The position numbers were made by a program, and so were the translations under genes. Of a stretch of DNA of 32,000 nt, positions 1 through 15,037 are shown piece after piece. Position 1 is the stretch's first letter. Each line of letters starts with the position of its first letter. Origin of the DNA: Candidatus Electronema halotolerans (GTDB lineage Bacteria; Desulfobacterota; Desulfobulbia; Desulfobulbales; Desulfobulbaceae); contig OW818675.1 of NCBI GenBank assembly GCA_942493095.1, positions 990,001 to 1,022,000 on the forward strand, read 5' to 3'. The notes under the pieces are model-generated. The model made no database searches. It saw only the letters and a list, made by a program, of their open reading frames with translations, and had not been told where the DNA came from.

Positions 1-170
1 CGATTCGCAGCGATATTAAAGCAGGAATAGCAATGGCCATTATATGAAAGAGAGGTTCCGGTTCAGTTTCATTGCCAACTGAGCCGGATTCAGGAAAAGA
101 GTCAGTTTATACTGAACAATACGTCCGGTCAGAACACCGAAAACAGTCAATCCATAAAGGGAGAATCGTT

Positions 171-293
171 ATGAAAGATCGCACCAAAAAGACAGACCGC
201 AAGACCGTTGCAGCGCAGAAGAACGAGAATAAAAACCGAAAGGGCCTTCGTACCGGTGTGAAAGCAGGAAAAATTGGCTGGCAGCCCGTTTAA
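171..293 (+). CDS. small basic peptide, paralog 1 of 3 (40 aa); candidate RiPP-type precursor with conserved N-terminal 33 aa and unique tail KIGWQPV
   Basis: In-frame ATG at 171 inside track ORF 72..293 (which starts at TTG), with AGGGAG about 7 nt upstream. MKDRTKKTDRKTVAAQKNENKNRKGLRTGVKAG matches the copies at 1863 and 4587. Stop TAA is at 291-293. Confidence 0.55.
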   Translation: MKDRTKKTDRKTVAAQKNENKNRKGLRTGVKAGKIGWQPV

Positions 294-295
294 AC
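288..295. repeat. 8-bp target-site duplication GTTTAAAC, left copy
   Basis: An identical octamer directly abuts both IS termini (288-295 and 1782-1789). Confidence 0.85.
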
Positions 296-1781
296 GTAAG
301 CGATCACAGGGTACCGCTCAGACCCAGCTTAAATCCGGCATCTGTCCTCTGAAATAGCAGCGCATGGCCTCGGTGAGCACCTCGAAAGTGGATTTTCCCC
401 GAAGCAGGCATGTCTGCCGGAGGGAAAGGATTCGTTCAACCCAGCGGTTTCCCTTGTCGCTGTCAGTGCCCTGACTCCGTTTGCGCCACAGCACGCCGAA
501 GCGGAGCATCCGTTCCGCTGGATTATTTGTCGGCTCTACGCCTTCTTCGAGCAAGAAAGTGAACAACGCCTCCATTTCCTTGTCAATATGACGGACAAAC
601 CTCCCCGCATCACTGTCGCAATCGCGCCAGCGTAGGATAAGTCGGCAGAGCCGGGCATAAAATGCGGACCATTCACCTTTGGTCGGCGGGTCTTTCGCCA
701 TGCGGCAGAGCCGCCGCAGTTCCGCAGCGGCCCATTTGCCGCAGGCGGCCAGTTCAGGGTCAGCGCGCTCCGCAAGGCCGTCTGCCCGGCGGATAAGATG
801 CGCGAGGCAAGTCTGCCGCTTGCCGACCCATTTTTGGTACACGTTGTATCCGTCGCTGATGAGAATACCGTTCCAAGCACCGATCAGTTCTTCAAAGGCT
901 TCCTTAGAGCGTTTCGGATGAATCATGAAGAACGCGGCCTGCCGGTTCGCCATAACCCATAACCAGCGCAGCCTGCCGCCAGTTTTCCACGTTGTTTCAT
1001 CAACATGTCCGATATCCCCGCTTGTGACGGCAGCCCGGACGGCCTCATAGTGCGGCGCGACAGCCGCCGAAGCCCGGTCAATGATCTTCTGCACCGCCCC
1101 GGCGCTGATAGGAACGCCGAGCACGGAACGGATGAATTTCCGCACAGTTCCCCGGCTGCTGCCGTCCATGCCGCTCAGTTCGGCAACCAGCGCGGTGAAC
1201 CGCGCCCCGAAACCGGTTCTGAATTCATCGGGAACACAGCCTCTGACGGTTTTGCCGCAGGCGGCGCATTCCCCTTTATAAAGAAGGAAATGCCTGACCT
1301 GCATCACGATTTCCGGCAGTTCAATATGCTGATGCGTATAATATGACCGTATGTTTTTGAATTTGCCGCAACCGCAGGAGCAGGCGGAAGGATACATTTT
1401 TTGCGTTTCTGTCGGCGGCATCAGCTCCTGACGATATCCACGCCGCTTTTTCCGGGGCTTCCCCGCCTGATCTCTCTGCCGTTTTTCTGTAAACGGAGAG
1501 TCGGAAGAAGGCGGCCTGTTCGAGTTCGAGGAATCTTCGCCGAGTTTCGCCTCAAGCTCTTCGACCCGTTTTCTCAGCCGCGTTACCTCAGCGATCAAAA
1601 AAGACAGCAGCTTCCGCACCGCAGGAGGTGTAGCGGCAAGGTCTTCCTCGCTTATCTCAAAATTTTCACGATGGAACGGGGCGGTCACAGCTTTCTCCTG
1701 CGGAAAAAATTACTGCTCACAATTTATCCAGTTGCGATGCCAAGCGCCAGTGTTTTTTAGAGACACCCTGTGATCAGTTAC
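296..1781 (-). mobile_element. IS66-family insertion sequence, single-ORF (ISBst12-like) type, 1486 bp, apparently intact
   Basis: Termini are GTAAGCGATCACAGGGT (296-312) and the reverse complement of 1765-1781, GTAACTGATCACAGGGT. They match at 15/17 and begin with the GTAA(GCG) typical of IS66 IRs. The element is flanked by an 8-bp direct repeat and carries one 456-aa IS66 transposase ORF. Confidence 0.9.
318..1688 (-). CDS. IS66-family transposase (TnpC-type DDE)
   Basis: 456 aa. N-terminal coiled-coil/leucine-zipper-like helix, NSNRPPSSD motif, Cys-rich zinc-finger region (CSCGCG..CAACG), and HVDETTW / SDGYNVY / CLAHLIRR / TNNPAERMLR blocks characteristic of IS66 TnpC. Confidence 0.95.
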   Translation of the reverse strand: MTAPFHRENFEISEEDLAATPPAVRKLLSFLIAEVTRLRKRVEELEAKLGEDSSNSNRPPSSDSPFTEKRQRDQAGKPRKKRRGYRQELMPPTETQKMYPSACSCGCGKFKNIRSYYTHQHIELPEIVMQVRHFLLYKGECAACGKTVRGCVPDEFRTGFGARFTALVAELSGMDGSSRGTVRKFIRSVLGVPISAGAVQKIIDRASAAVAPHYEAVRAAVTSGDIGHVDETTWKTGGRLRWLWVMANRQAAFFMIHPKRSKEAFEELIGAWNGILISDGYNVYQKWVGKRQTCLAHLIRRADGLAERADPELAACGKWAAAELRRLCRMAKDPPTKGEWSAFYARLCRLILRWRDCDSDAGRFVRHIDKEMEALFTFLLEEGVEPTNNPAERMLRFGVLWRKRSQGTDSDKGNRWVERILSLRQTCLLRGKSTFEVLTEAMRCYFRGQMPDLSWV

Positions 1782-1789
1782 GTTTAAAC
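1782..1789. repeat. 8-bp target-site duplication GTTTAAAC, right copy
   Basis: Identical to 288-295 and immediately outside the right IS terminus. Confidence 0.85.
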
Positions 1790-1862
1790 TCTCGCTCTTT
1801 TTCTCCTTGTGTCGGCTCTGCTCCGGCACAGGGCAACACAAACTCTGTTCATAAGGAACACT

Positions 1863-2012
1863 ATGAAACGCAACACCAGCAGAAAGACAGACCGCAAGAC
1901 CGTTGCAGCTCAGAAAAACAACAAAAATCGAAAAGGACTTACGACTGGGGTAAAAGCAGGTCGTTGGCCCCTCTTTATTCCTGTTTCCTTCGCTGGCCCT
2001 GGCGGCAACTGA
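1863..2012 (+). CDS. small basic peptide, paralog 2 of 3 (49 aa); tail RWPLFIPVSFAGPGGN
   Basis: ATG at 1863 within track ORF 1809..2012, with AAGGA 6 nt upstream. MKRNTSRKTDRKTVAAQKNNKNRKGLTTGVKAG is shared with the other two copies. Confidence 0.55.
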   Translation: MKRNTSRKTDRKTVAAQKNNKNRKGLTTGVKAGRWPLFIPVSFAGPGGN

Positions 2013-2032
2013 ATTTTTTATTTTAGCCGTGT

Positions 2033-2053
2033 AGTGTGCGCACCGCGCACACT
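2033..2053. terminator. 9-bp stem hairpin between convergent genes (peptide 2 and the AsnB-like gene)
   Basis: AGTGTGCGC-acc-GCGCACACT. It lies in the 66-bp gap between stop codons at 2012 and 2079. There is no clean U-tract on either side, so its function is uncertain. Confidence 0.35.
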
Positions 2054-2078
2054 ATCCCTATCCGGCAACGTCCTTCCA

Positions 2079-4307
2079 TCACCTAACCACCACCACCCCG
2101 TAATCCAAAGCCTCCTCCAGATGCTTGCGGATGTCGGCCTGCTTCAGGCCCAAGTCCTCAAGGATCGTACCCAACGAAATTCTGCCGTCCATTCGCCGCA
2201 ACACCGCAATCCAGTCCCCAACCTCATCCTCAGCTAAATCATACTCCAGTACCCCGTTGATCAGAATATGCCAGAGGGGCGTTTCCACGCCCGCCTGCTC
2301 CCCAGTGGTCAGCAGGAGCACATCCTCGGCCAGTTCCGGGATGCTTTCAGGGGTGATTTCCTGCCGCCGCAGGGCCAGCCGCAGGGCGATCTCCTCTTCA
2401 TCCCATTCCTCGGCCCGCAGCGAGGGCAGAATCGGGGCTTCATAGAGCGCAACCGGTTCGGCAGCAGCGGTTGCGGCCATCTGCGCCAGCAGGCCCATAT
2501 TGGTCAGCTTGACGAGATGATCCATATCCGCATATTCCGGGTCATCAGGAATGCTGTTGATCATCTCTTCCACGGTCTGCCGGTCAAAGACCGGATGCGA
2601 GCCGTCCGCATCACCGAAGGCTTCGCGCAGCAGGGCGCGGTCATCGGCATAGAGCAGTTCATACATCATCCGCTGGGTATAGCGCAGATCCTGGCCGTAG
2701 AAAAACGGCACCTTTGGCCGTTCAGCCAGCTCTTTTGGCAGATGCGGTCGCATGGCCTCGCGGAGGATGCGCTTATTCCAGAACAGTTCCGCATAATATT
2801 TGGGCGGAACCGCCGCAGTGTACTCCACGAGACGGTGATCAAGAAAGGGCACTCGATTTTCAATGCTGTTGCCCGCCGCAGTCCGGTCTTCGTGCCAGAG
2901 GTTGAACATCTGGAGGCTGGCCTGATACATGCGGATATGGTACTGCCAAGGATGCGGCTGGAGAGTTGCTCCGCCGCAGTCGGCGAGAAAGCCGCTGTTG
3001 AGCAGATTGGCATAGTCCGCTGTATTTTTCGGGCCGACAGAGAGGAGATAGGTCTTTTCAAAATCCCGCAGCAGTTCCATAAACAGGGGCCAGTTCCGTT
3101 CTTCCTCCGGGCGTTCAGGGTAGCCCTCAGCAAGATAATTCGGGCCGTAGCCGCCGTTGAACTCATCGCTGCCTTGACCGAGAAGCATAACCTTGAGTCC
3201 GGGACAAACAGCGCGGGCATAGCGATGCAGATGAAACTTGTACAGCTTTTCCGCATCACAGAGAGGGGTTTCAGTAATCCAGAGCAGAGATTTCCAGCCC
3301 TCCGGGGTGAAGGGGCTGTCGTGCCAGGAAAAGAGCACCTGATGATTGGGCAGGCCGAGATGGGTTGCAGCCTGATGAGCGGCAGAGGCATCTCCGTTTT
3401 CAAAGGTGCTCTGGCCGAGTACGGAAAAGGTATGCAGGGACTGATGCCGGGATGCGAAGGCGGCCACGGAGACTGAATCAATGCCGCCGCTGAGAAACAG
3501 GCCGATATCCACATCAGCCATCAGGCGGAGCCGCACCGAGTCTTCAAGTAGCTCGCCGTAGCCTTGAATGATTTCTTCTGCGGAACGGTCGTCTGCGGCG
3601 AATTCTTCTTCTGAAGGAATATCAAGCGTCCACCAGCGTTTCTGACGGATTTCTCCGGTGTCCGGTTTGGCGATAAGCAGTGAGCCGCCGGGCAGGTAAT
3701 GAATGTCTTTAAAGAAAGACGGCAGGGGATTGTCTATGCTCTGCTGCATCAGGTTGAAGCTCAGAGCGGTTTCCCAGTCAAACTCACGCGGGCAGTCGGG
3801 ACAGGCGAGCAGAGATTTGATCTCCGAGCCGAAAAGCAGACGTTCCTTGTTGAAGCTGTAAAAGAGCGGCTTGATGCCCATGCGGTCACGGGCTAAGAGC
3901 AGCTTCCGGCTGCGCATGTCCCAGAGGCACAGGGCGAACATGCCGTTGAGTTGCTTGAGAAAATCTGCGCCCTGTTCCTCGTAAAGATGGAGAATGACCT
4001 CCGCATCCGAGGCGGTGCGGAACTGGTGCGGTTCTTTGAGTTGCGCTCTGAGTTCCCGGTGATTGTAGATCTCGCCGTTGACCATGAGCATCAGGGAGCG
4101 GTCTTCATTGAACAGGGGCTGCCTGCCGCCTTCTACATCCACGATGGACAAACGGCGGAACACCGTGCCCAAGATATCATCCTGATAGAGCTGCTCATCA
4201 TCCGGGCCTCGGTAGGCGATGGACTGACCCATTGCCCTGAGTACCGGTTCAGTTTCAGGGCCAAGAGGCAGACGGTTTGTTTTCAGTATTCCGGCGAATC
4301 CGCACAT
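2079..4307 (-). CDS. asparagine synthetase (glutamine-hydrolysing) family amidotransferase with a ~110-aa C-terminal PqqD/RRE-like extension
   Basis: 742 aa. Class-II glutaminase residues are intact: MCGFAG (Cys2), RRLSIVD, NGEIYN, SDAEVI. PP-loop LSGGIDS is present. GGAG lies 11 nt upstream of the ATG. The C-terminal tail ...WIAVLRRMDGRISLGTILEDLGLKQADIRKHLEEALDYGVVVV is absent from canonical AsnB. Confidence 0.93.
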   Translation of the reverse strand: MCGFAGILKTNRLPLGPETEPVLRAMGQSIAYRGPDDEQLYQDDILGTVFRRLSIVDVEGGRQPLFNEDRSLMLMVNGEIYNHRELRAQLKEPHQFRTASDAEVILHLYEEQGADFLKQLNGMFALCLWDMRSRKLLLARDRMGIKPLFYSFNKERLLFGSEIKSLLACPDCPREFDWETALSFNLMQQSIDNPLPSFFKDIHYLPGGSLLIAKPDTGEIRQKRWWTLDIPSEEEFAADDRSAEEIIQGYGELLEDSVRLRLMADVDIGLFLSGGIDSVSVAAFASRHQSLHTFSVLGQSTFENGDASAAHQAATHLGLPNHQVLFSWHDSPFTPEGWKSLLWITETPLCDAEKLYKFHLHRYARAVCPGLKVMLLGQGSDEFNGGYGPNYLAEGYPERPEEERNWPLFMELLRDFEKTYLLSVGPKNTADYANLLNSGFLADCGGATLQPHPWQYHIRMYQASLQMFNLWHEDRTAAGNSIENRVPFLDHRLVEYTAAVPPKYYAELFWNKRILREAMRPHLPKELAERPKVPFFYGQDLRYTQRMMYELLYADDRALLREAFGDADGSHPVFDRQTVEEMINSIPDDPEYADMDHLVKLTNMGLLAQMAATAAAEPVALYEAPILPSLRAEEWDEEEIALRLALRRQEITPESIPELAEDVLLLTTGEQAGVETPLWHILINGVLEYDLAEDEVGDWIAVLRRMDGRISLGTILEDLGLKQADIRKHLEEALDYGVVVVR

Positions 4308-4455
4308 AATACATTTTCTCCTTCAATATCAGGCACCGAAAAGGGGACACGATATAAACCAAACCAACGCGATCAGAATAGGTGAAGACTGTCGTGATGT
4401 CAAGCAGGAAGAGACAGCTTATTGATATTGCCAAGATATTTTTTTAAAATACAGC

Positions 4456-4486
4456 TTGACAAATACTTGAGGGGGGGGGGTAATAT
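4456..4486 (+). promoter_or_regulatory. sigma70-like promoter for peptide gene 3
   Basis: TTGACA (4456-4461), a 19-nt spacer, then TAATAT (4481-4486). An AT-rich UP-like stretch (atatttttttaaaata) lies just upstream. The spacer contains a G10 run. Confidence 0.55.
4471..4480 (+). repeat. G10 homopolymer tract inside the promoter spacer
   Basis: Ten consecutive G read directly. This is the longest homopolymer I noticed in the window. Confidence 0.95.
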
Positions 4487-4586
4487 TTCTATTAAGAATA
4501 CGGATTGTCTCTGCGGATGCGGAGATAATCTCATCAGCCGGTCGGACGACCGAAAATATTCCGTTCAAAAAATATGGAGGAACATC

Positions 4587-4712
4587 ATGAAACGCAACAC
4601 CAGCAAAAAAACAGACCGCAAGACCGTTGCAGCGCAGAAGAATGAAAGCAAAAGCCGGAAGGGTTTTCGTACCGGTGTGAAGGCGGGAAGATTAATCATA
4701 GATCATTATTAA
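4587..4712 (+). CDS. small basic peptide, paralog 3 of 3 (41 aa); tail RLIIDHY
   Basis: ATG at 4587 within track ORF 4422..4712, with GGAGG 6 nt upstream. MKRNTSKKTDRKTVAAQKNESKSRKGFRTGVKAG. It has its own promoter (4456-4486) and terminator (4774-4805). Confidence 0.65.
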   Translation: MKRNTSKKTDRKTVAAQKNESKSRKGFRTGVKAGRLIIDHY

Positions 4713-4773
4713 TCAATCATTTATAATCGATCGGGGACAGACCCCACATTTAGCCCGACAGCGTAAAGCTCCG

Positions 4774-4805
4774 CAGGGTGCCTTCAGCGCACCCTGTTTG
4801 TTTTT
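4774..4805 (+). terminator. rho-independent terminator after peptide gene 3
   Basis: CAGGGTGC-cttcagc-GCACCCTG followed by TTTGTTTTT. Confidence 0.75.
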
Positions 4806-4835
4806 CCCTCCCTGCCCCTGAAAATGCCTGCGCAT

Positions 4836-4994
4836 CTAACTTTTTGATTTTTCACCTTTAAATGGATTAATAAAAGCCACGCCGGTACGTTCAATATCGG
4901 CCACGTTGCGCGTCACCAGGGTTAAACCGTGAACTGAGGCTGTGGCCGCCAACAGGCTGTCAATCACCGGCAGCGGATCTGGTACGCCCAACCA
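4836..4994 (-). pseudogene. vapC: vapC (PIN-domain toxin) 3' remnant, C-terminal ~50 codons only
   Basis: Manual translation of the minus strand gives [52 protein letters not shown]. It is bounded upstream by an in-frame TGA. The ID..IAAtA..HgltLvTrNv.dF....nPf pattern is the canonical VapC C-terminus. It overlaps the kinase stop codon in another frame. Confidence 0.6.
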
Positions 4995-7620
4995 TCACCA
5001 CCTTTTTCGCTTCACTCAGCCTGTTTTCATGCACTGTGGCCAGCACCCGCTGAAAAGCGGCCTTGGCAAAGGGCTTTTCAAGAAAATCGTTCATGCCCGC
5101 CTCGGTGCAGCGTTGCCGGTCTTCGACCGCCACATTAGCGGTGATGGCGACAATCCACGGCTGCTGCTCAGGGGCGATTTCGGCCCGGATGCGTCGGGTC
5201 GCCTCCAGACCGTCCATGACTGGCATGTTGACATCCATGAAGACCACGTCATAAGGCGTTTCCTGCACCTTTTGCAGGGCATCCGCGCCATTGTCAACAA
5301 AATCAACGGTCAGGTCGAACTTTTTCAAAAAGGTGCGAATCAGCATCTGATTGCCCCGGTTGTCGTCTGCCGCTAAAACGCGGAGCGCAGTTTTTTCCGG
5401 CGGCGCAATGACTGCTGTCGTCTGCTCTGCCGCCTGACAGGGCAGGGCCACTGACCTGCATGTTCCTTCGCAGCTTAGTGCTTGGAACAGTGCCTTTATG
5501 GTCAGGGGTTTGTTGATCAGCAGCGGCTCTGTTCCAGCAGGCAGCAACCATTCACATTCAGTCAGATGCACAGGATACGCCAGCAGAATGGGCGGAGAGG
5601 GCAGGGTGCTGACAAGCTGCTTGAGCCGCTCCCGCCCGCTGCTGTCAAGCTGCTCCAAGGCGGCATCGTCAACAAGGAGGAGATCGGGCGGCTGAGAAAT
5701 ATCTGCTCCGTTAAACTGACTGGCCGGGACAGACTGCACATGCAGGCCAAGGAAGTGCAAGGGCTTGCTTACAGCCTGTTCCAAGGTCGGATTATGGATC
5801 AGCAGGAGGATGCGCTGGCCGGAGAAGACTGGAGCAGGCAGGTCAATGCAGCTTGCGGGCTGCTCGTCGGCAATCCGCAGGGGCACGGTGAAGGAGAAGC
5901 AGGAGCCTTGACCAAGCTCGCTTTCCACCGTGATGCTGCCACCCATCAGCTCGGTCAGCTGGGCGCAGATGCTCAGGCCAAGGCCGGTGCCGCCGTACTT
6001 GCGGCTGGTCGAGGACTCGGCCTGGCTGAAGGAGCGGAACAGCTTCTTGATGTTTTCCTCGGCAATGCCGATGCCGGTGTCACGGACGCTCCACGTCAGC
6101 ATGGTTCCGCTGTCATCAGCGCGAACTGAAACCTCCACCTCGCCTTTTTCTGTGAACTTCAGGCTGTTGCCCACCAGATTAAGCAGAATCTGCTCAATCC
6201 GGGCCGAGTCGCCGATGATCCGGCAGGGGAGCTGAGGATCAATGTCGGCAATCAGCTCAATGCCCTTGGCCCCGGCCTTGGGACTCATCAGAGTCAGCAC
6301 CTTTTCGACACTGCTGTGGAGGAGAAAAGGCCGTTCTTCCAGCTCCATCTTGCCGGCCTCGATCTTGCTGAAGTCAAGAATGTCGTTGACCAAGCGGATC
6401 AGGCTGTTGCCGCTGGCATGAATGACTGAGGCAAAGTTGTGCTGCTCCTTGCTCATCTTGGTGTCTAAGAGAATCTCAGCCATGCCGATGATGCCGTTCA
6501 TGGGCGTGCGGATTTCATGGCTCATGAAAGCAAGGAACTGCGCCTTGGCATGCGCCGCCTCTTCCGCCGCCTCTTTGGCTTCGCACCAGGCATTTTCAGC
6601 CCGGATAATGAAACGGGAGAAAAACCAGGAAAAGAGCACGGAGATGGCCACGCTGAGGACAAGGGAAATGCCGATATTGATTAAAAAATCATGCTGGGAC
6701 TCCCGCGCCAGGGCGTAGGCGGAATCGCGGCGGTCAACCAGCACAGCGGCGAAATCAATTGATTCCGCCACGTCATAGCTGCCGACATAGCTTGCTCCGG
6801 CATAATCAAAGCGTTCCAGCTTTGAGACTCTGGCTAACGTGGTGTGGCTCAGGCTGGCGGCAATGTCGTCAATCAACGGATAAGGCAGCTTGTCACCCAG
6901 CTTGAACGGTGCCTTGCGGTTGGCATAGAGCACTGTCCCTTGGGCATCGGCAATATAAATCTCCGCAAACTGGTTTTCGATTCCCAGCCCGGCCTCTTCG
7001 CCGATTCGTTGCAGGGCCTCAGAGAGCTGGAACACGCAGCGCACCTGCACCTTCTGCCCAGACGGCTCGATGATGAACAGATCAACAGGCAGAAAGAATT
7101 CAGTGCGTTCCTCGGAGCGGATGAAAATCGGAGCGCAGGTTTTGGTTGCGCCCTGCTGGCGGATTTGGCAGTTTGCAGTCAGCATCCTGCCGACTCCTTC
7201 CGCATCAGCGGCGGAGAGCCGGGCCATTTCCTCCTCTTTGAATAGAGAAAGCGGCGGCCCGCCGTTCTGTACCATCATCACGAGAATATCCTTAGACTGG
7301 CGGACAAAAACATCCAAAAGCCGGTTGCGTTCAGCAGAATCAGCATTGCTGCTGACAATGTCGGCAATTCGGGCAAGGCTCGCCTGCCACGTCAGGGTGT
7401 TGAGCTGATCAATCTGAAGGGTGATCTGCTTGGCAGTCAGGAGAAATTGATTGTTGAGCGAGCTGGTGAGCTGGTTCTCGACATTGCGCAGCAGCTTCCA
7501 CGCGACAATGCTGTAGGGGAGGATGCCAATCAGCAGAAAGGACAGCAGAAAGGTGTTGAAGAGGAGTTTTTTATTGAAACGGGTCAGACGATGCATGGAA
7601 CACGACTCTGGCAGCGGCAT
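4960..7620 (-). CDS. hybrid sensor histidine kinase / response regulator
   Basis: 886 aa. Two TM segments flank a ~270-aa periplasmic region. HisKA H-box [15 protein letters not shown] and HATPase G-boxes GTGLGLSIC are present. C-terminal receiver is LRVLAADDN...[13 protein letters not shown]...EKPF. An alternative start at Met9 is possible. Confidence 0.93.
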
Positions 7621-9932
7621 CAGTCCCCGGAGTCGGCGGCAGAATTGCCGAGCATGTCCTGCACCCGGATTTCCCGCAGCGTCACTTTTCCGGCCACGCC
7701 GGGGAGGATGAAAATGCTGCCGACAAAAGTATCAGGCGTTTCGCCCGTGTGTTTGAGCAGGCCCTTGAAGGGCTGGCCATTGACCTCGGCGACAAAAGAG
7801 CCGCTCTTGGCCGCGCCAACGCCGGCATCCTTAATCCGGGCGGCCAGCCGCACCATTTCGCCGCCTTTGGTTTCCGGCGGCGAGAATTTTGCACTGAGGA
7901 TTTCGGGCGGCTGTGAGTCGCGCAGGATGCTGGTTTTCCAGAAGCCCCGGTTGCCTGCCCGGTCTTCAGCTATCAGCATCAGCTTGTTGTCGCCTTCTGC
8001 CAAGGCAACAGCTTCCTTGAAGCTCTTGCCGGTCAGCTTGACCGCCTTGCCATTCAGGGTCAGCAAGGCCTGTTCAGAAACCGTGCCGCTCAGGGTGATC
8101 TGTCCGGCTGAGGTCACGCGCTCAAGCTCATTGACCTGAATTTTCGGTGGCTGCGGGTCAACAAGCACGTGCAGACGCAGGGTTTCCTGCGCTCCATTCG
8201 GCCCGGCAGCCTCCAGCTCCACCGCATGTTCTCCTTCGTTGAGATGGAGCAGATGCGTGAACCTGCCTGCGGCCTGCACTGCTGTTTTGTTGATTTGCAG
8301 GCGCACACCGGGCAGGAGCTGGCCGGAAATTGTCACCTCTTCCGTCCTGCTGATAATTCGCTCAGGATTGTCAAGCCAGATGAGCTGCTTGTCCTGCCGC
8401 AGGGTCACGGTGCGCTCAACTGTGCTGGTGTTGCCTGCCGCATCCGCAGCTTCGGCCTTGATCACCGTGCTTGTGCCGCTGAGAGCAATGACATGCCGGA
8501 ACTGCCCGTCCGCATCTGGCTTGACTTCCTGCCCGTTAATCCGCAGCCGGGCGGTTTTTTCCACCTCGCCGCGCACTTCGATTTCCTTGTCCGCAGTCAG
8601 TATATCTTTTTCTGGCTGATGCAGCACGAGAAAAGGCGGACGGCTGTCCAGATCAACAAAGAAATTGACAGGTTCCGAACAGGGGCCGGGACAGCCTTCC
8701 TGATCAATGGTTTTGATCTTGAAAAAATAGGCACCGCTGGCCGGGACCTGCCATTGCCAGCTCTGGCCGCTGACCCTGTCAGACGAGAGCAATGCAAGGA
8801 AGTCCGAGCTGCGGCTGATTTCAAGCTGATACTGACTGGCTCTGGCAACTGGTTCCCATTTGAACAGCAGCTGCGCCTCATGCAGCTTCTGCTCCGACTG
8901 CGGACTGATGATCTTCGGCGGAGGCAGGAGTTCGTGCGGCGTGTCAGGTTGCTGACCAGGTTTGACCTTGGTGGCCTGATTCTTTTTCACCGTCACCTGC
9001 GCCCCAGCGGCTTTGATGTCGATTTCGCCGTCATAGTTGGCAATCCGGGTGACGTTTTTCTTGTCGCGGGAGGTGAGAAAACTTCGTGAGCGGACATTCG
9101 TGGTGATGTCAGGCAGATTCACTTTGAACTGCTTCTGCTGATTCAGCGAGGCCAGATGGACAAGAACATCGCCCTTAAACATGGAAACGCTGTTGCTGTA
9201 GGAACTGCGGAGCACATTTTTTTCCATGCTGCCGATCACCACCAGCGCATGTTCATCTAAAGAAAGCTGGCTCTGGTCGCTGAATTTGATCGTGCAGCGG
9301 GATGCAGCCAAGGTGCGGACCCGCTCCAGTTCTTTCAGCTTCTGCTCCATCTCCGTGTCCAGCCAGCGGGAAGCATCTGGCGGTCGGTTCTGCACTGTGC
9401 CGGATTTGGCAGCCAGCCAGGCCTCAGCAGACTGAGTCTGGCTCTGTTTCGCTTTTTCAAAAGCTGCCTGCGCCGCTGTCTCGGCCAAGGCAGCCTGTTT
9501 CACGGCTTCTTTCAGACGAGCTTCTTGCTTGAGGCGCAGGGCCTGATCGCGCAGGCGGACTGCCGCAGCGATTTCCTGCTCTGCCAGCAAGGCTGCGCCT
9601 TCCCGGTTGGCTTCACTGATCAGGAAGGCGGAATGTTCAAGATGCTGGCGCAGCTTGCTGTGCAGAGCCACAGGAAATCGCAGCACCGTGCCTGCGCCAA
9701 CTGCATCAGGATTTTTCAGTCGGTTATAGCGCAGGACAAGCTGCCACGCATCGCCGTCGCCGAGTTGCTGCTCGCTGACCTGCCGCAGGGACTCCCCGGC
9801 CTTGAGTGTAATCTGCACATCGCCATCAGCAGAGGATGCAGCTCCGTTTGGTCGAGAGATGCAGCAACTCAGCAAGATAACCAGAAATATGCTTATGTTT
9901 TTCCCTGACATAGATTTGTTTTTCTCCAGCAC
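7620..9932 (-). CDS. secreted LysM / FecR-like / FN3 / Ig-like repeat protein
   Basis: 770 aa. Signal-like N-terminus ([12 protein letters not shown]) and a LysM-like segment ([39 protein letters not shown]). These are followed by a coiled coil, a FecR-like beta region, and repeated ~85-aa Ig-like modules. The stop overlaps the kinase start by 1 nt (TGATG). Confidence 0.85.
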
Positions 9933-12964: not shown

Positions 12965-15037
12965 GTGAAAGCAGGGGTGGAGCCGTCATCCTTTGTCAGC
13001 ACCGTCCAGACCGCCCAGCTACTCAAACAGCTGCGCAGCCTTGCTGGCGATCAGGCGCAGGAGCTGACCCTGCTGCGGGATGACTTTGCCGATCCAGAGG
13101 AGCTGGCCCGGCTCTATGTTGAGCCGCATCTCCAAGAGCGCAGTCCGGGCGGACAGGAAGGCGTGCCGCCGCCCGTGCCGCGTCAGCCTGCTTTTGCCCT
13201 GCTTAATCAATTTCTTGGCAGCGGCCCGCTTCAGACCGAAGACAGCAGTCATCAGCTTTTTCTTCTCGGCGAAGCAGGCTGTGGCAAGACATCCCTGCTC
13301 CTGCTGCTCAAGCTGCTTTTTCTGAGCGGCTCATGGCCGCAGAACTGCCGCTGCGAGCTGTTCCGAATTGGCCCGGAGACTCTTGCCCAGCTGGCGGCAG
13401 TGGCAAGAAAAAGCGAGACCATCCTGCTGCTTGACGGGCTGAATCATGACCGGGCTGCCAGCAGACGCTTGCGGGAGCGGCTGCTGGAGCTGCTGGAGGC
13501 AGGCGCGGAATTCCGCCGGGTGATCGTGACCTGCCGCACTCATTTTTTTCCGGGCATCAAAATTGACCGGGCAGGCCGTCAGGTTATTCAGGGACTGGAG
13601 GGCTATAACTGTCCCGTGCTCCATCTCTCGCCCTTTGACAGCCAGCAGATGCAGGAGTTGCTCCGCAGGCAGCTTGTCGCCCGCAGCGGCTATCTGGGCC
13701 TGCAAGGTTTTGGCGCAGGCCGCCAGCGGCTGCGAGACGCATTCGAGTTTGCCGGACAGAGTCCTCTGCTCCGGCAGAGTCCGCTGTTTCTCCGCCATGT
13801 CGGGATGCTCTTGGCTGCGGATGCAGGCCCGGCGCAAGATATCCGCAGCCTCTGCCACGCGCTCTTTCAGCAATGGCTGCAGCATCTGCAAAAGGTGCTG
13901 CCAGACAATCCGCAGCTGCCAGACTGTGCGGCAATGCGCAGGACCTGCATCAAGCTCGCCTGCTGGCTGGAGAAGCTGAACAGGAACGTCATCACCGCGC
14001 CGGAGCTGCAAAAACTGTTTTGCCGGAACAGGCCCCATTGCTGGCTGGAGCTGATACCGCCGGATCAGGATGCGCTGCTGGAAAAAAAATCCAATGGCAG
14101 CATCCGCTTCCGGCACCCAATCTTTCGCGAGTTTCTCCTGGCCTGCGCCCTGAAAGAGGAGCCGCCGCCCTTTCCAGTGCGGGCCACAGATATGCTGGTT
14201 CATTTTCTGGAGCTGGCCGGAGGCATCTCTCAGCACCTGAACGGATTGGATTTTGCCAATTTTCATCCGCACCGGTATGTGGAGCGGCATGGTGCGCGCT
14301 TGGTCTGGCAGGAGCAGTTCAGCAGCAAAAGGGGCAGGGCGCAGCGCGGGCCGGAGCTGATCATGCTGCCTGGAGGCCGTTTTCTGATGGGCGACCAGTC
14401 AGGCCAAGGTCAGGACAATGCCCGGCCTGTTCATGCAGTGGAATTGGACAGCTTCGGCTTATGCCGCTTTCCAGTCACTTTTGCGGAATATGATGAGTTC
14501 TGCTTGGCAACAGGCCGGGCCAGGCCGCCTGATAACGGCTGGGGCCGCGCCCAAAGACCGGTGATCAATGTCAGCTGGCAGGATGCGGTTGACTACTGCG
14601 CCTGGCTGATCCGGCAGACTGGCAGGCATTACCGCCTGCCCACTGAGGCGGAGTGGGAATACGCCTGCCGGGCTGGCAGCAGGACTGACTACTGCTTTGG
14701 CGATGATTCTGAACAGCTCGAAGGCTATGCCTGGCATGTCCGCAATTCGGAGCGGCAGACGCAGCCAGTGGGCGGCAGAAAGGCCAATGCCTGGGGCCTG
14801 CATGACATGCACGGCAATGTCTGGGAGTGGTGCGCGGACTGGTATGCCAAAGACTGTTACATCCATGAGCCGATGCGGAATCCGTTTGGAGCTGGTGCGG
14901 AACATGGGGCAGGCCGGGTCCTGCGCGGCGGCTCTTGGGACAGCAGTGCCAAGTTTGTCGCCTCGCATTTTCGCTTCTGCCTCTCGCCGGGCCTGAGCAT
15001 AGTCCGGGCTGGCTTCCGCGTCGCCTTGGGAGCCTGA
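12965..15037 (+). CDS. NACHT-like P-loop NTPase fused to a C-terminal FGE-sulfatase (SUMF1/EgtB/PvdO-type) domain
   Basis: 690 aa from a GTG start. Walker A GEAGCGKTS and Walker B ILLLDGLNHD are present. The C-terminal ~235 aa carry RLPTEAEWEYACRAG, HGNVWEWCADWY and RVLRGGSWDS. The FGE catalytic Cys pair after RGGSW is absent. Confidence 0.88.
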   Translation: MKAGVEPSSFVSTVQTAQLLKQLRSLAGDQAQELTLLRDDFADPEELARLYVEPHLQERSPGGQEGVPPPVPRQPAFALLNQFLGSGPLQTEDSSHQLFLLGEAGCGKTSLLLLLKLLFLSGSWPQNCRCELFRIGPETLAQLAAVARKSETILLLDGLNHDRAASRRLRERLLELLEAGAEFRRVIVTCRTHFFPGIKIDRAGRQVIQGLEGYNCPVLHLSPFDSQQMQELLRRQLVARSGYLGLQGFGAGRQRLRDAFEFAGQSPLLRQSPLFLRHVGMLLAADAGPAQDIRSLCHALFQQWLQHLQKVLPDNPQLPDCAAMRRTCIKLACWLEKLNRNVITAPELQKLFCRNRPHCWLELIPPDQDALLEKKSNGSIRFRHPIFREFLLACALKEEPPPFPVRATDMLVHFLELAGGISQHLNGLDFANFHPHRYVERHGARLVWQEQFSSKRGRAQRGPELIMLPGGRFLMGDQSGQGQDNARPVHAVELDSFGLCRFPVTFAEYDEFCLATGRARPPDNGWGRAQRPVINVSWQDAVDYCAWLIRQTGRHYRLPTEAEWEYACRAGSRTDYCFGDDSEQLEGYAWHVRNSERQTQPVGGRKANAWGLHDMHGNVWEWCADWYAKDCYIHEPMRNPFGAGAEHGAGRVLRGGSWDSSAKFVASHFRFCLSPGLSIVRAGFRVALGA

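Follow-up and report, generated by a model that had tools for sequence, protein, structure and literature searches.

A candidate peptide-modification locus of cable bacteria with multi-copy precursors and an asparagine synthetase-like enzyme carrying a fused recognition-element-like domain

A stretch of 32,000 nucleotides from the genome of the cable bacterium Candidatus Electronema halotolerans (contig OW818675.1, positions 990,001 to 1,022,000; called the window below) was analysed. Near its left end, small genes for basic peptides lie on both sides of one gene for a 742-aa asparagine synthetase-like (AS-like) amidotransferase. The locus probably encodes a pathway of the type that makes peptides synthesised ribosomally and modified post-translationally (RiPPs). 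In this pathway the leader of each peptide would guide the amidation of its C-terminus, and leader cleavage and export would follow; the chemistry is deduced from homologous enzymes. The enzyme belongs to a family whose C-terminal chemistry was published in 2026 (Cha et al., bioRxiv Sept 2026, PMC13622209). Therefore, the locus is real but only partly new. A sequence-only reading of the same DNA had recognised a RiPP-like grammar here, in which several precursors combine a conserved leader with a hypervariable tail and a single enzyme brings the recognition element, and the computational analysis supported it.

Results

A peptide family with conserved leaders and variable tails

Four paralogous small open reading frames (ORFs) were found in the window (Table 1). 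Three of them, pepA, pepB and pepC, had been listed by the sequence-only reading and were borne out with their positions, strand and lengths. The fourth, pep0, had been missed; only its 3' end falls into the window. The complete pep0 is found in L112, a JGI contig of a near-identical strain; it has 42 aa (1023-1151) and matches window 1-47. An identical tail is present in its orthologue at 6700-6831 of L001 (Ca. Electrothrix aestuarii). The JGI contig also has a called protein identical to pepA. The product of pepB is identical to the database protein P0008, and that of pepC to GCAAIG_04605, a hypothetical protein of Ca. Electronema halotolerans; a look-up of pepC (P0001) returned no gene on record.

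The peptides start with MKRNTSKK or MKDRTKK and share a leader rich in Lys and Arg, about 33 residues long and with G-V-K-A-G at its end. The Lys of this motif is invariant in the window peptides, and the leader contains no Tyr and no Pro, hence no YxxP motif. The protein alignment of pepA, pepB and pepC showed 23 invariant columns in the first 34 or so residues, and the hypervariable tails of 6-16 residues could not be aligned. The shared leader and divergent tails described earlier were thus confirmed. The same holds for the claim that each gene has its own ribosome binding site (RBS), because a GGAG-type site was found 5-9 nt upstream of the ATG in each window ORF. Shine-Dalgarno sites were also seen on nearly all of the 23 copies collected from the window and public contigs.

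The leader codons were compared between the window copies. The synonymous differences (pS 0.43-0.68) outnumbered the non-synonymous ones (pN 0.09-0.16), with a pN/pS of 0.13-0.30; the pooled value across the 23 DNA copies was 0.33. Leader ratios of 0.13-0.33 mark the small ORFs as genuine coding sequences kept by purifying selection, not as a DNA repeat. Neither Pfam nor NCBIfam had a match for the peptides. Among 5.8 billion proteins only 12 relatives were retrieved, at E = 3e-18 to 3e-6, a similarity far beyond chance. The named ones belong to Ca. Electrothrix and the others are metagenome records.

Similarity in the 5' untranslated regions had been claimed for all three genes. It held for pepA and pepC, which resemble each other over about 50 nt, but not for pepB, which has little similarity upstream beyond the RBS region. 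The region upstream of pepC is very strongly similar to that of its own orthologues. An Rfam scan of window 1-5200 gave sub-threshold noise only; the conserved 5' region contains none of the known RNA elements.

An amidotransferase with a fused RRE-like domain

The precursor genes flank a single enzyme gene, as the sequence-only reading had stated, and its ORF is intact despite a nearby insertion sequence (IS) of the IS66 family. Pfam assigned GATase_7 at 2.7e-46 and Asn_synthase at 2.5e-61, and the generic model TIGR01536 was passed with 380 bits (cut-off 267). The enzyme remained below the cut-offs of the AsnB equivalog model NF006949 (279 bits; cut-off 499), of the lasso cyclase model NF033535 (207 bits; cut-off 525) and of the XrtA-associated amidotransferase model. 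When the enzyme was aligned with 27 homologues drawn from many phyla, R52, N77, G78, E79, D101 and the SGGIDS loop proved invariant. Cys2 was present in all aligned homologues but one, an N-terminally truncated sequence, and all of them have about 150 additional C-terminal residues. The closest solved structure by sequence is 7ylz, a hydroxyamidotransferase.

For the C-terminal 88 residues, AlphaFold2 gave a model with a predicted local distance difference test (pLDDT) score of 94.4, and the fold resembles a RiPP recognition element (RRE). The top match of this domain in the PDB by Foldseek was the lasso RRE TbiB1 with its leader bound (5v1u). The best full-length superpositions were obtained with TbiB1 5v1u and with the MccB peptide clamp, at template modelling (TM) scores of 0.57-0.59. 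Sequence profiles gave weak matches to winged-helix families and to PaaA-like_N, the latter in 6 of 21 members. The peptide-recognition domain supposed earlier is therefore supported by model and fold comparison, with weak E-values that are discussed below. The domain profile found just 154 cluster representatives among 1.84 billion proteins, the domain stands nearly always at their C-terminus, and the full-length proteins with the domain have 695-770 aa. It can therefore be taken as a signature of the enzyme family.

Co-localisation of peptide and enzyme had been set beforehand as the main test, and the outcome was positive: the two adjoin in six independent cable-bacterial loci (Table 1). 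The peptide family was found in cable bacteria only. In cable-bacterial contigs the peptides usually lie at most 0.5 kb from an enzyme orthologue of 85-92% identity. One contig (L107) ends in an array of at least four precursor copies, and the contig L094 proved to be the distal part of the L002 locus. A metagenome scan with a degenerate pattern gave 23 contigs, of which seven held genuine family members. The remaining ones were rejected as TatA-like or unrelated proteins that share KGF(K/R)TG.KAG by chance. A degenerate DNA pattern for KTDRKTVAAQK gave 0 matches in the species-representative genomes, so the family cannot be counted per genome in this way.

The cable-bacterial copies carry 31 distinct tails. 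Most are very short (6-7 aa in 25 of 31), seven contain Asp or Glu, and six have Gln as the first tail residue. A single locus holds several paralogues whose tails and last residues are unrelated.

Fragments of the enzyme gene were also observed inside precursor arrays. A duplicated N-terminal part was seen in L098 (1-2041), and a C-terminal RRE fragment lies between precursors in L113 (13122-13217). These fragments point to frequent rearrangement of the loci.

An export module in related loci

In two cable-bacterial loci (L002/L094 and L113/L114), the enzyme and precursors occur together with a C39-peptidase ABC transporter and a short HlyD-like protein. The former locus has a second ABC protein as well. 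C39-ABC exporters were also found in the loci of Thiomargarita (L004/L015), Pseudoalteromonas (L012) and Myxococcota (L029), where the orthologues are 39-53% identical over full length; a partial one is present in Parabeggiatoa. The exporters carry the catalytic Cys/His motifs QTSAMDCGP and THF. The second ABC protein recurs in the loci of Thiomargarita, Myxococcota and Chloroflexota.

Enzyme orthologues in other lineages are 47-69% identical and have adjoining small ORFs. The leaders of these ORFs differ, yet they end in G/T-(V/L/I)-(K/R)-A-G or a close variant, and a short variable tail follows (Table 1). In the loci with a C39 exporter, the form before the short variable tail is G-(V/L/I)-(K/R)-A-(G/A). 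All copies keep V-K-A-G (or I/L-K-A-G, K-V-G, K-A-A), also in the other phyla, and this is the presumed cleavage site. Gln is the first tail residue in all four Chloroflexota tails. The idea that Ala-Gly forms a leader end of the double-glycine type receives some support from the C39-ABC exporters of related loci, not from the window itself.

A further hint comes from L094 (1757-3258). Here a precursor whose tail has just three residues, QAM, precedes a fusion protein of 434 aa. This protein joins an N-terminal part like the short HlyD-like partner of the exporter to a C-terminal glutaminyl cyclase (Glu_cyclase_2, 2.7e-93). The fusion suggests that Gln-first tails are capped as pyroglutamate after leader cleavage. 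The position of a glutaminyl cyclase beside a Gln-first tail supports cleavage after Ala-Gly.

Two further observations concern the relatives. The locus of Pseudoalteromonas amylolytica, a cultivable species, has two precursor pairs (L012, 4521-4930 and 7517-7900). One pair adjoins the C39-ABC exporter and the other adjoins the enzyme, and their tails are near-identical (YTGGGY/YGGGGY and NPGAR/NPGAR). In Bacillus thuringiensis (L007, 79-5606), an enzyme homologue of 42% identity over full length shares its operon with a methyltransferase, PqqD, a 163-aa protein that lacks annotation, a transporter of the major facilitator superfamily (MFS) and a GNAT protein. No precursor was identified in this operon; it may represent a third version of the system, from Firmicutes.

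Other elements of the locus

The coordinates of all features are collected in Table 1. The IS66 element is identified by its transposase, which matches Pfam DDE_Tnp_IS66 and NCBIfam transpos_IS66 (241.6 bits), and by the terminal inverted repeats GTAAGCGATCACAGGG and CCCTGTGATCAGTTAC. The 8-bp target duplication GTTTAAAC at 288-295 and 1780-1787 takes in the pepA stop codon. In the near-identical strain (L112) the insertion site is empty, so the insertion is recent. The gene order there is pep0, pepA, pepB and the 3' end of the enzyme gene, and pepB starts 75 nt past the pepA stop. The element does not belong to the system; the tandem of pepA and pepB is interrupted by it.

The inverted repeat between the convergent pepB and enzyme genes is possibly a terminator shared by both. 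The terminator scan missed it because no T-run follows the stem. The same scan flagged a hairpin plus T-run on the minus strand at 196-214, 1891-1909 and 4615-4633. These three hairpins are the reverse complement of leader codons (KTDRKTVAA) and are most likely a repeat artefact.

The candidate promoter of pepC has a poly-G run in the spacer between its -35 and -10 boxes. Such runs were found in orthologous and paralogous promoters (G10, G9, G9 and G6), with the copies at window 4456-4486, near 9900 and 10900 in L001 and upstream of 3258 in L094. Variation of the run length could switch individual precursor genes on and off by slipped-strand mispairing. A consensus promoter scan listed another site, TTGATA-17-TAAAAT, at 4422-4450.

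Away from the locus, window 12965-15037 encodes a 690-aa protein with a weak N-terminal NACHT-like P-loop and a C-terminal FGE-sulfatase domain, which is like the formylglycine-generating enzyme, an unusual combination.

Table 1. Features of the window, followed by enzyme-linked loci and precursor ends in relatives. A spaced slash separates leader and tail.
Feature	Location	Strand	Description
pep0, 3' end	1..47	+	...SIRSDIKAG / IAMAII, then stop; truncated by window edge
pepA	171..293	+	40 aa; MKDRTKKTDRKTVAAQKNENKNRKGLRTGVKAG / KIGWQPV; RBS GGGAG
pepB	1863..2012	+	49 aa; ...KGLTTGVKAG / RWPLFIPVSFAGPGGN
pepC	4587..4712	+	41 aa; ...KGFRTGVKAG / RLIIDHY; RBS GGAGG; divergent from enzyme gene
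Leader segments			MKRNTSKKTDRKTV and KGFRTGVKAG
Enzyme gene	2079..4307	-	AS-like amidotransferase, 742 aa, fused C-terminal RRE-like domain
Glutaminase domain	3798..4304	-	residues ~2-170; Cys2, R52, N77, G78, E79, D101
Synthetase domain	2544..3557	-	residues 251-588; SGGIDS loop at 273-278
RRE-like domain	2082..2345	-	residues 655-742; four strands, three helices, one strand
IS66-family insertion sequence	296..1779	-	1484 bp, compact, single ORF; transposase ORF 318-1688 (-)
Perfect 10-bp inverted repeat	2032..2054		TAGTGTGCGC acc GCGCACACTA; between convergent pepB and enzyme genes
Candidate pepC promoter	4456..4486	+	TTGACA, 19-nt spacer with G10 (4471-4480), TAATAT
Intrinsic-terminator-like hairpin and T-run	4773..4805	+	3' of pepC; terminator scan
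Enzyme-linked loci, cable bacteria	window/L112; L001; L002/L003/L106; L009/L102; L092; L098; L113/L114		L001: Ca. Electrothrix aestuarii, four copies; L098: four tandem copies
Precursor end, Thiomargarita	L004/L015		...TDTRAG / CFIRNCPRPG
Precursor end, Thiotrichaceae	L011		...SVQAG / RSPTGWLSAGSW
Precursor end, Parabeggiatoa	L023		...GTQAG / FTVFAI
Precursor end, Pseudoalteromonas amylolytica	L012		four copies; ...GLKAG / NPGAR
Precursor end, Myxococcota	L029		three copies; ...GVKAG / RLPPL
Precursor end, Chloroflexota	L024		four copies; ...GLKAG / QYDL...

Discussion

The following route is proposed for the locus. The RRE-like domain would bind the basic leader, and the synthetase domain would adenylate the C-terminal alpha-carboxylate, which is taken as the target because it is the sole carboxylate common to all tails. 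Amidation of an Asp or Glu side chain was considered and rejected, since most tails have no acidic residue. Ammonia released from Gln by the glutaminase domain would then attack the acyl-adenylate to give a C-terminal carboxamide; onward conversion to a nitrile, or another nitrogen donor, would be the alternatives at this step. During export the C39 peptidase domain of the ABC transporter would cut after Ala-Gly. The products would be short peptides, mostly of 6-7 residues and capped at the C-terminus, and those with Gln in front may also cyclise to pyroglutamate. The sequence-only reading had set tail amidation aside, because the cluster type did not fit. This judgement has to be revised, as the nearest chemistry that has been demonstrated acts on the C-terminal carboxylate (FzmA, TsrC, ScdTA, PesC).

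Several points weigh against leader-guided amidation followed by C39 export. The reaction product is inferred solely from homologues of about 40% identity. The enzyme passes the generic TIGR01536 model, so it might have a housekeeping role or make asparagine as a side activity. The best Foldseek E-value of the RRE-like domain was 0.16 and none was below 1e-3, so the RRE assignment is based on topology and not on statistics. Against the PDB sequences the domain gave nothing at E<0.1, with PaaA and PqqD only at E of about 1.3-1.6, and its profile comparison with the PqqD of B. thuringiensis was not significant. At least one peptide copy (L100) is an apparent orphan; the enzyme is missing from the 1.2 kb to one side of it and from the 3.2 kb to the other. 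The window precursors have 40-49 aa and no YxxP, unlike the 21-22-aa precursors of the FzmA family, and Ala-Gly in place of Gly-Gly is an atypical site for a double-glycine leader. Finally, the exporter was not seen for this genome. Pfam on the long ORFs found no C39 exporter in the 32-kb window, none lies directly left of the window region in the near-identical strain (L112), and the best 120 exporter homologues included none from the 3.2-Mb contig of Ca. Electronema halotolerans or from the 5.1-Mb contig of Ca. Electrothrix aestuarii. Processing may therefore differ or be lost here. With the IS insertion and no exporter detected, the system looks reduced in this genome; the enzyme ORF and the precursors are intact. 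The earlier statement that the window has no B protease, YcaO, dehydratase or C39 transporter was likewise correct, the first three being absent from the window ORFs by Pfam (the protease as the lasso B protease).

Other explanations were weighed with the same evidence. The peptides could follow the scaffold logic of FzmZ and the pearlins. In this logic the peptide is a carrier: hydrazine or hydroxylamine is loaded on its C-terminal residue, a small molecule is built there, and general peptidases release it. This is the demonstrated role of FzmA, the only characterised member with a fused RRE, and the nearest solved structure by sequence, 7ylz, is a hydroxyamidotransferase. However, no genes of a hydrazine or hydroxylamine pathway, nucleotidyltransferase, AurF, discrete RRE or PepM were found by Pfam on the long ORFs of the window. 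A scaffold would also be expected to keep its last residue, whereas the paralogues of one locus differ in both tail and last residue, and the leader-cleaving exporter of related loci points to a peptide product. We hold the scaffold explanation to be unlikely. A macrolactam, either lasso-like or head-to-tail, would arise if a peptide amine (the new N-terminus or the Lys of GVKAG) attacked the adenylated carboxylate. The GVKAG Lys is indeed invariant, lasso cyclases are AS-like enzymes, and the B. thuringiensis homologue sits with PqqD and a methyltransferase. The residues of the glutaminase site would nevertheless be needless for a cyclase, and they are kept (R52, N77, G78, E79 and D101, with Cys2 nearly so). 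The lasso cyclase model is not passed, no B protease is present in the window, and the tails are mostly 6-7 aa with few Asp or Glu residues. Macrolactam formation is accordingly judged quite improbable. A lasso peptide in particular was rejected on the model score, the short tails and the missing protease.

The enzyme might also carry the amide further to a C-terminal nitrile by a second, ATP-dependent dehydration, as PesC does, and the products would then be peptides like protease inhibitors. PesC is a precedent for an AS-like enzyme that takes a peptide C-terminus to the nitrile, and amidases and nitrile synthetases share no distinguishing sequence signature. On the other hand, the beta-hydroxy-Asp made for PesC by a multinuclear non-haem iron-dependent oxidase (MNIO) and the R(V/T)DN motif are both absent here, the BLASTp search of the PesC authors found close homologues only in orthologous pes clusters, and they identified nitrilobacillin pathways only in Bacillus-related genera. 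A nitrile product is thus very improbable. The least probable case is that peptides and enzyme have no functional link, and that unmodified bacteriocin-like or basic nucleic-acid-binding peptides stand beside a housekeeping asparagine synthetase, or that the locus is decaying here. It could be argued from the passed TIGR01536 model, from IS66 within the precursor array, from the exporter not found for this genome among the best 120 homologues, and from the orphan copy in L100. Enzyme-precursor synteny in at least five phyla or classes argues against it, and so do the fused RRE-like domain confined to this enzyme family, the AsnB score below cut-off, the purifying selection on the leaders, the intact enzyme ORF and the lack of any Pfam or NCBIfam match for the peptides. 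A housekeeping AsnB was rejected for the fused RRE, which lies within the roughly 150 extra C-terminal residues, and for the conserved synteny.

Leader-guided C-terminal amidation therefore stays the preferred explanation. If it is true, an AS-like enzyme with a built-in RRE alone defines a RiPP family, and this family reaches from Desulfobulbia (cable bacteria) and the giant sulfur bacteria to Pseudoalteromonas, Myxococcota and Chloroflexota. The enzyme would tolerate very different C-terminal residues and be guided by the leader only. It would thus be a candidate general catalyst for the C-terminal amidation of peptides, which is wanted in peptide drug manufacture. The FzmA family would be extended from the scaffold peptides of actinomycetes to exported, leader-cleaved products. 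The peptides would be the first candidate secreted signals or toxins of cable bacteria, which are not yet in pure culture. A bolder extension, which we regard as doubtful, is that the locus represents a RiPP class not yet characterised, with the AS-RRE enzyme as the source of its only modification. Its products would be exported libraries of amides of 6-7 residues, with pyroglutamate on Gln-first tails. The paralogues would perhaps be switched one by one by the poly-G promoters, and would serve multicellular cable bacteria and other large sulfur bacteria as signals or in the discrimination of kin. In such a class, end-capping by amide and pyroglutamate would follow the logic of animal peptide hormones such as thyrotropin-releasing hormone (TRH).

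Comparison with known systems

The nearest published relatives are the FzmA-type AS-like enzymes with a fused C-terminal RRE, which form 'cluster 58' of a PF00733 network clustered at a threshold of >40% identity (PMC13622209). FzmA acts in fosfazinomycin biosynthesis and modifies the C-terminal carboxylate of a ribosomal peptide; it is the only characterised member of the fused-RRE family, and its peptide FzmZ serves as a scaffold (PMC13622209). The neighbourhood of cluster 58 includes a discrete PqqD/RRE, a nucleotidyltransferase, AurF and an MFS transporter, and its 21/22-mer precursors have an N-terminal YxxP that is used for RRE engagement (PMC13622209). The window enzyme is 41% identical over 742 aa to a Streptomyces enzyme (L049), with the RRE aligned to the last residue; the link to the FzmA family was made through such L049-type enzymes. 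The neighbours of the Streptomyces enzyme are a CAAX-protease-like (Rce1-like) gene, a nucleotidyltransferase (NTP_transf_2), PqqD and AurF, which is the profile of cluster 58. In 41 actinomycete loci a tiny ORF lies about 150-250 nt upstream of the enzyme, and for 38 of them a 22-23-aa peptide is listed, such as MRKYTKPEAKKVNQGTVLGSVV; these 22-mers are YxxP peptides, and the L049-type starts with MRKYTKP. A separate PqqD is present in 23 actinomycete loci. No actinomycete 22-mer in the collected set ends in VR, so none of the collected loci is a fosfazinomycin cluster.

The window locus and cluster 58 have in common the architecture of glutaminase, synthetase and C-terminal RRE, and, beside the enzyme, the gene of a very short ribosomal peptide that opens with basic M-(K/R)-(K/R) and varies in its last few residues. 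An identity of about 41% puts the window enzyme near the clustering threshold of the authors. In contrast to cluster 58, the precursors here carry G-(V/I/L)-K-A-G ahead of the tail, and each locus has 3-5 paralogues whose tails are unrelated. The window has no discrete RRE, nucleotidyltransferase, AurF or MFS transporter (Pfam, long ORFs); related loci have the C39-ABC exporter, the short HlyD-like protein and the second ABC protein instead. The locus had been called undescribed. This does not hold for the enzyme family and its chemistry, which are published (PMC13622209) and represented here by the 41% full-length homologue, but it does hold for the features of precursor and exporter. C39 exporters, proteobacteria and cable bacteria are unmentioned in PMC13622209 and PMC13060819. 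In the literature searched, the basic 40-aa leader with G-Φ-K-A-G (Φ = V, L or I), the multi-copy hypervariable tails, the C39-exporter module and the presence in cable bacteria and further Gram-negative lineages are all unreported.

TsrC (thiostrepton) and ScdTA are AS-like as well; with Gln and ATP they turn the C-terminal carboxylate of a peptide into the amide (PMC13060819), and the window enzyme is proposed to do the same. These two are tailoring enzymes within large clusters for thiopeptides or other RiPPs, whereas the AS-like enzyme is the sole modifying enzyme here; a fused RRE is unreported for them in the literature searched. PesC of the nitrilobacillins is an AS-like enzyme that takes a peptide C-terminus to the amide and then to the nitrile (PMC13060819). 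Its reaction depends on a neighbouring beta-hydroxy-Asp, which an MNIO installs, and on R(V/T)DN, a motif conserved at the C-terminus; in BLASTp its close homologues were restricted to orthologous pes clusters, and nitrilobacillin pathways are reported only from Bacillus-related genera (PMC13060819). About 300 uncharacterised AS-like candidates near RiPP elements are reported in the same source (PMC13060819). PesC and the window enzyme are alike in that an AS-like enzyme would define the class and would have the C-terminus of the ribosomal precursor as its target. The hydroxy-Asp, the RxDN motif and the Bacillus-related range are all inapplicable to the window locus.

The lasso C proteins differ from the window enzyme by the cyclase model that it does not pass, by the leader protease (B or B2) that the window lacks and by the glutaminase site that it keeps, and the tails of the window family are too short and mostly without an acceptor Asp or Glu, which a lasso core has at position 7-9. 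They share with it the AS superfamily and, on the proposed route, RRE-guided leader recognition, and the best structural match of the window domain is TbiB1. The leader end can be compared with the double-glycine leaders of class II bacteriocins, competence peptides and colicin V. Here the leader is strongly basic and not amphipathic, the tails are far shorter than bacteriocins, and the window itself has no exporter. The presumed cleavage site nevertheless resembles theirs in its small residues at -1 and -2 and its hydrophobic residue at -4 (V-K-A-G), and the related loci have a C39-ABC exporter, with its catalytic Cys and His, and a short HlyD-like partner.

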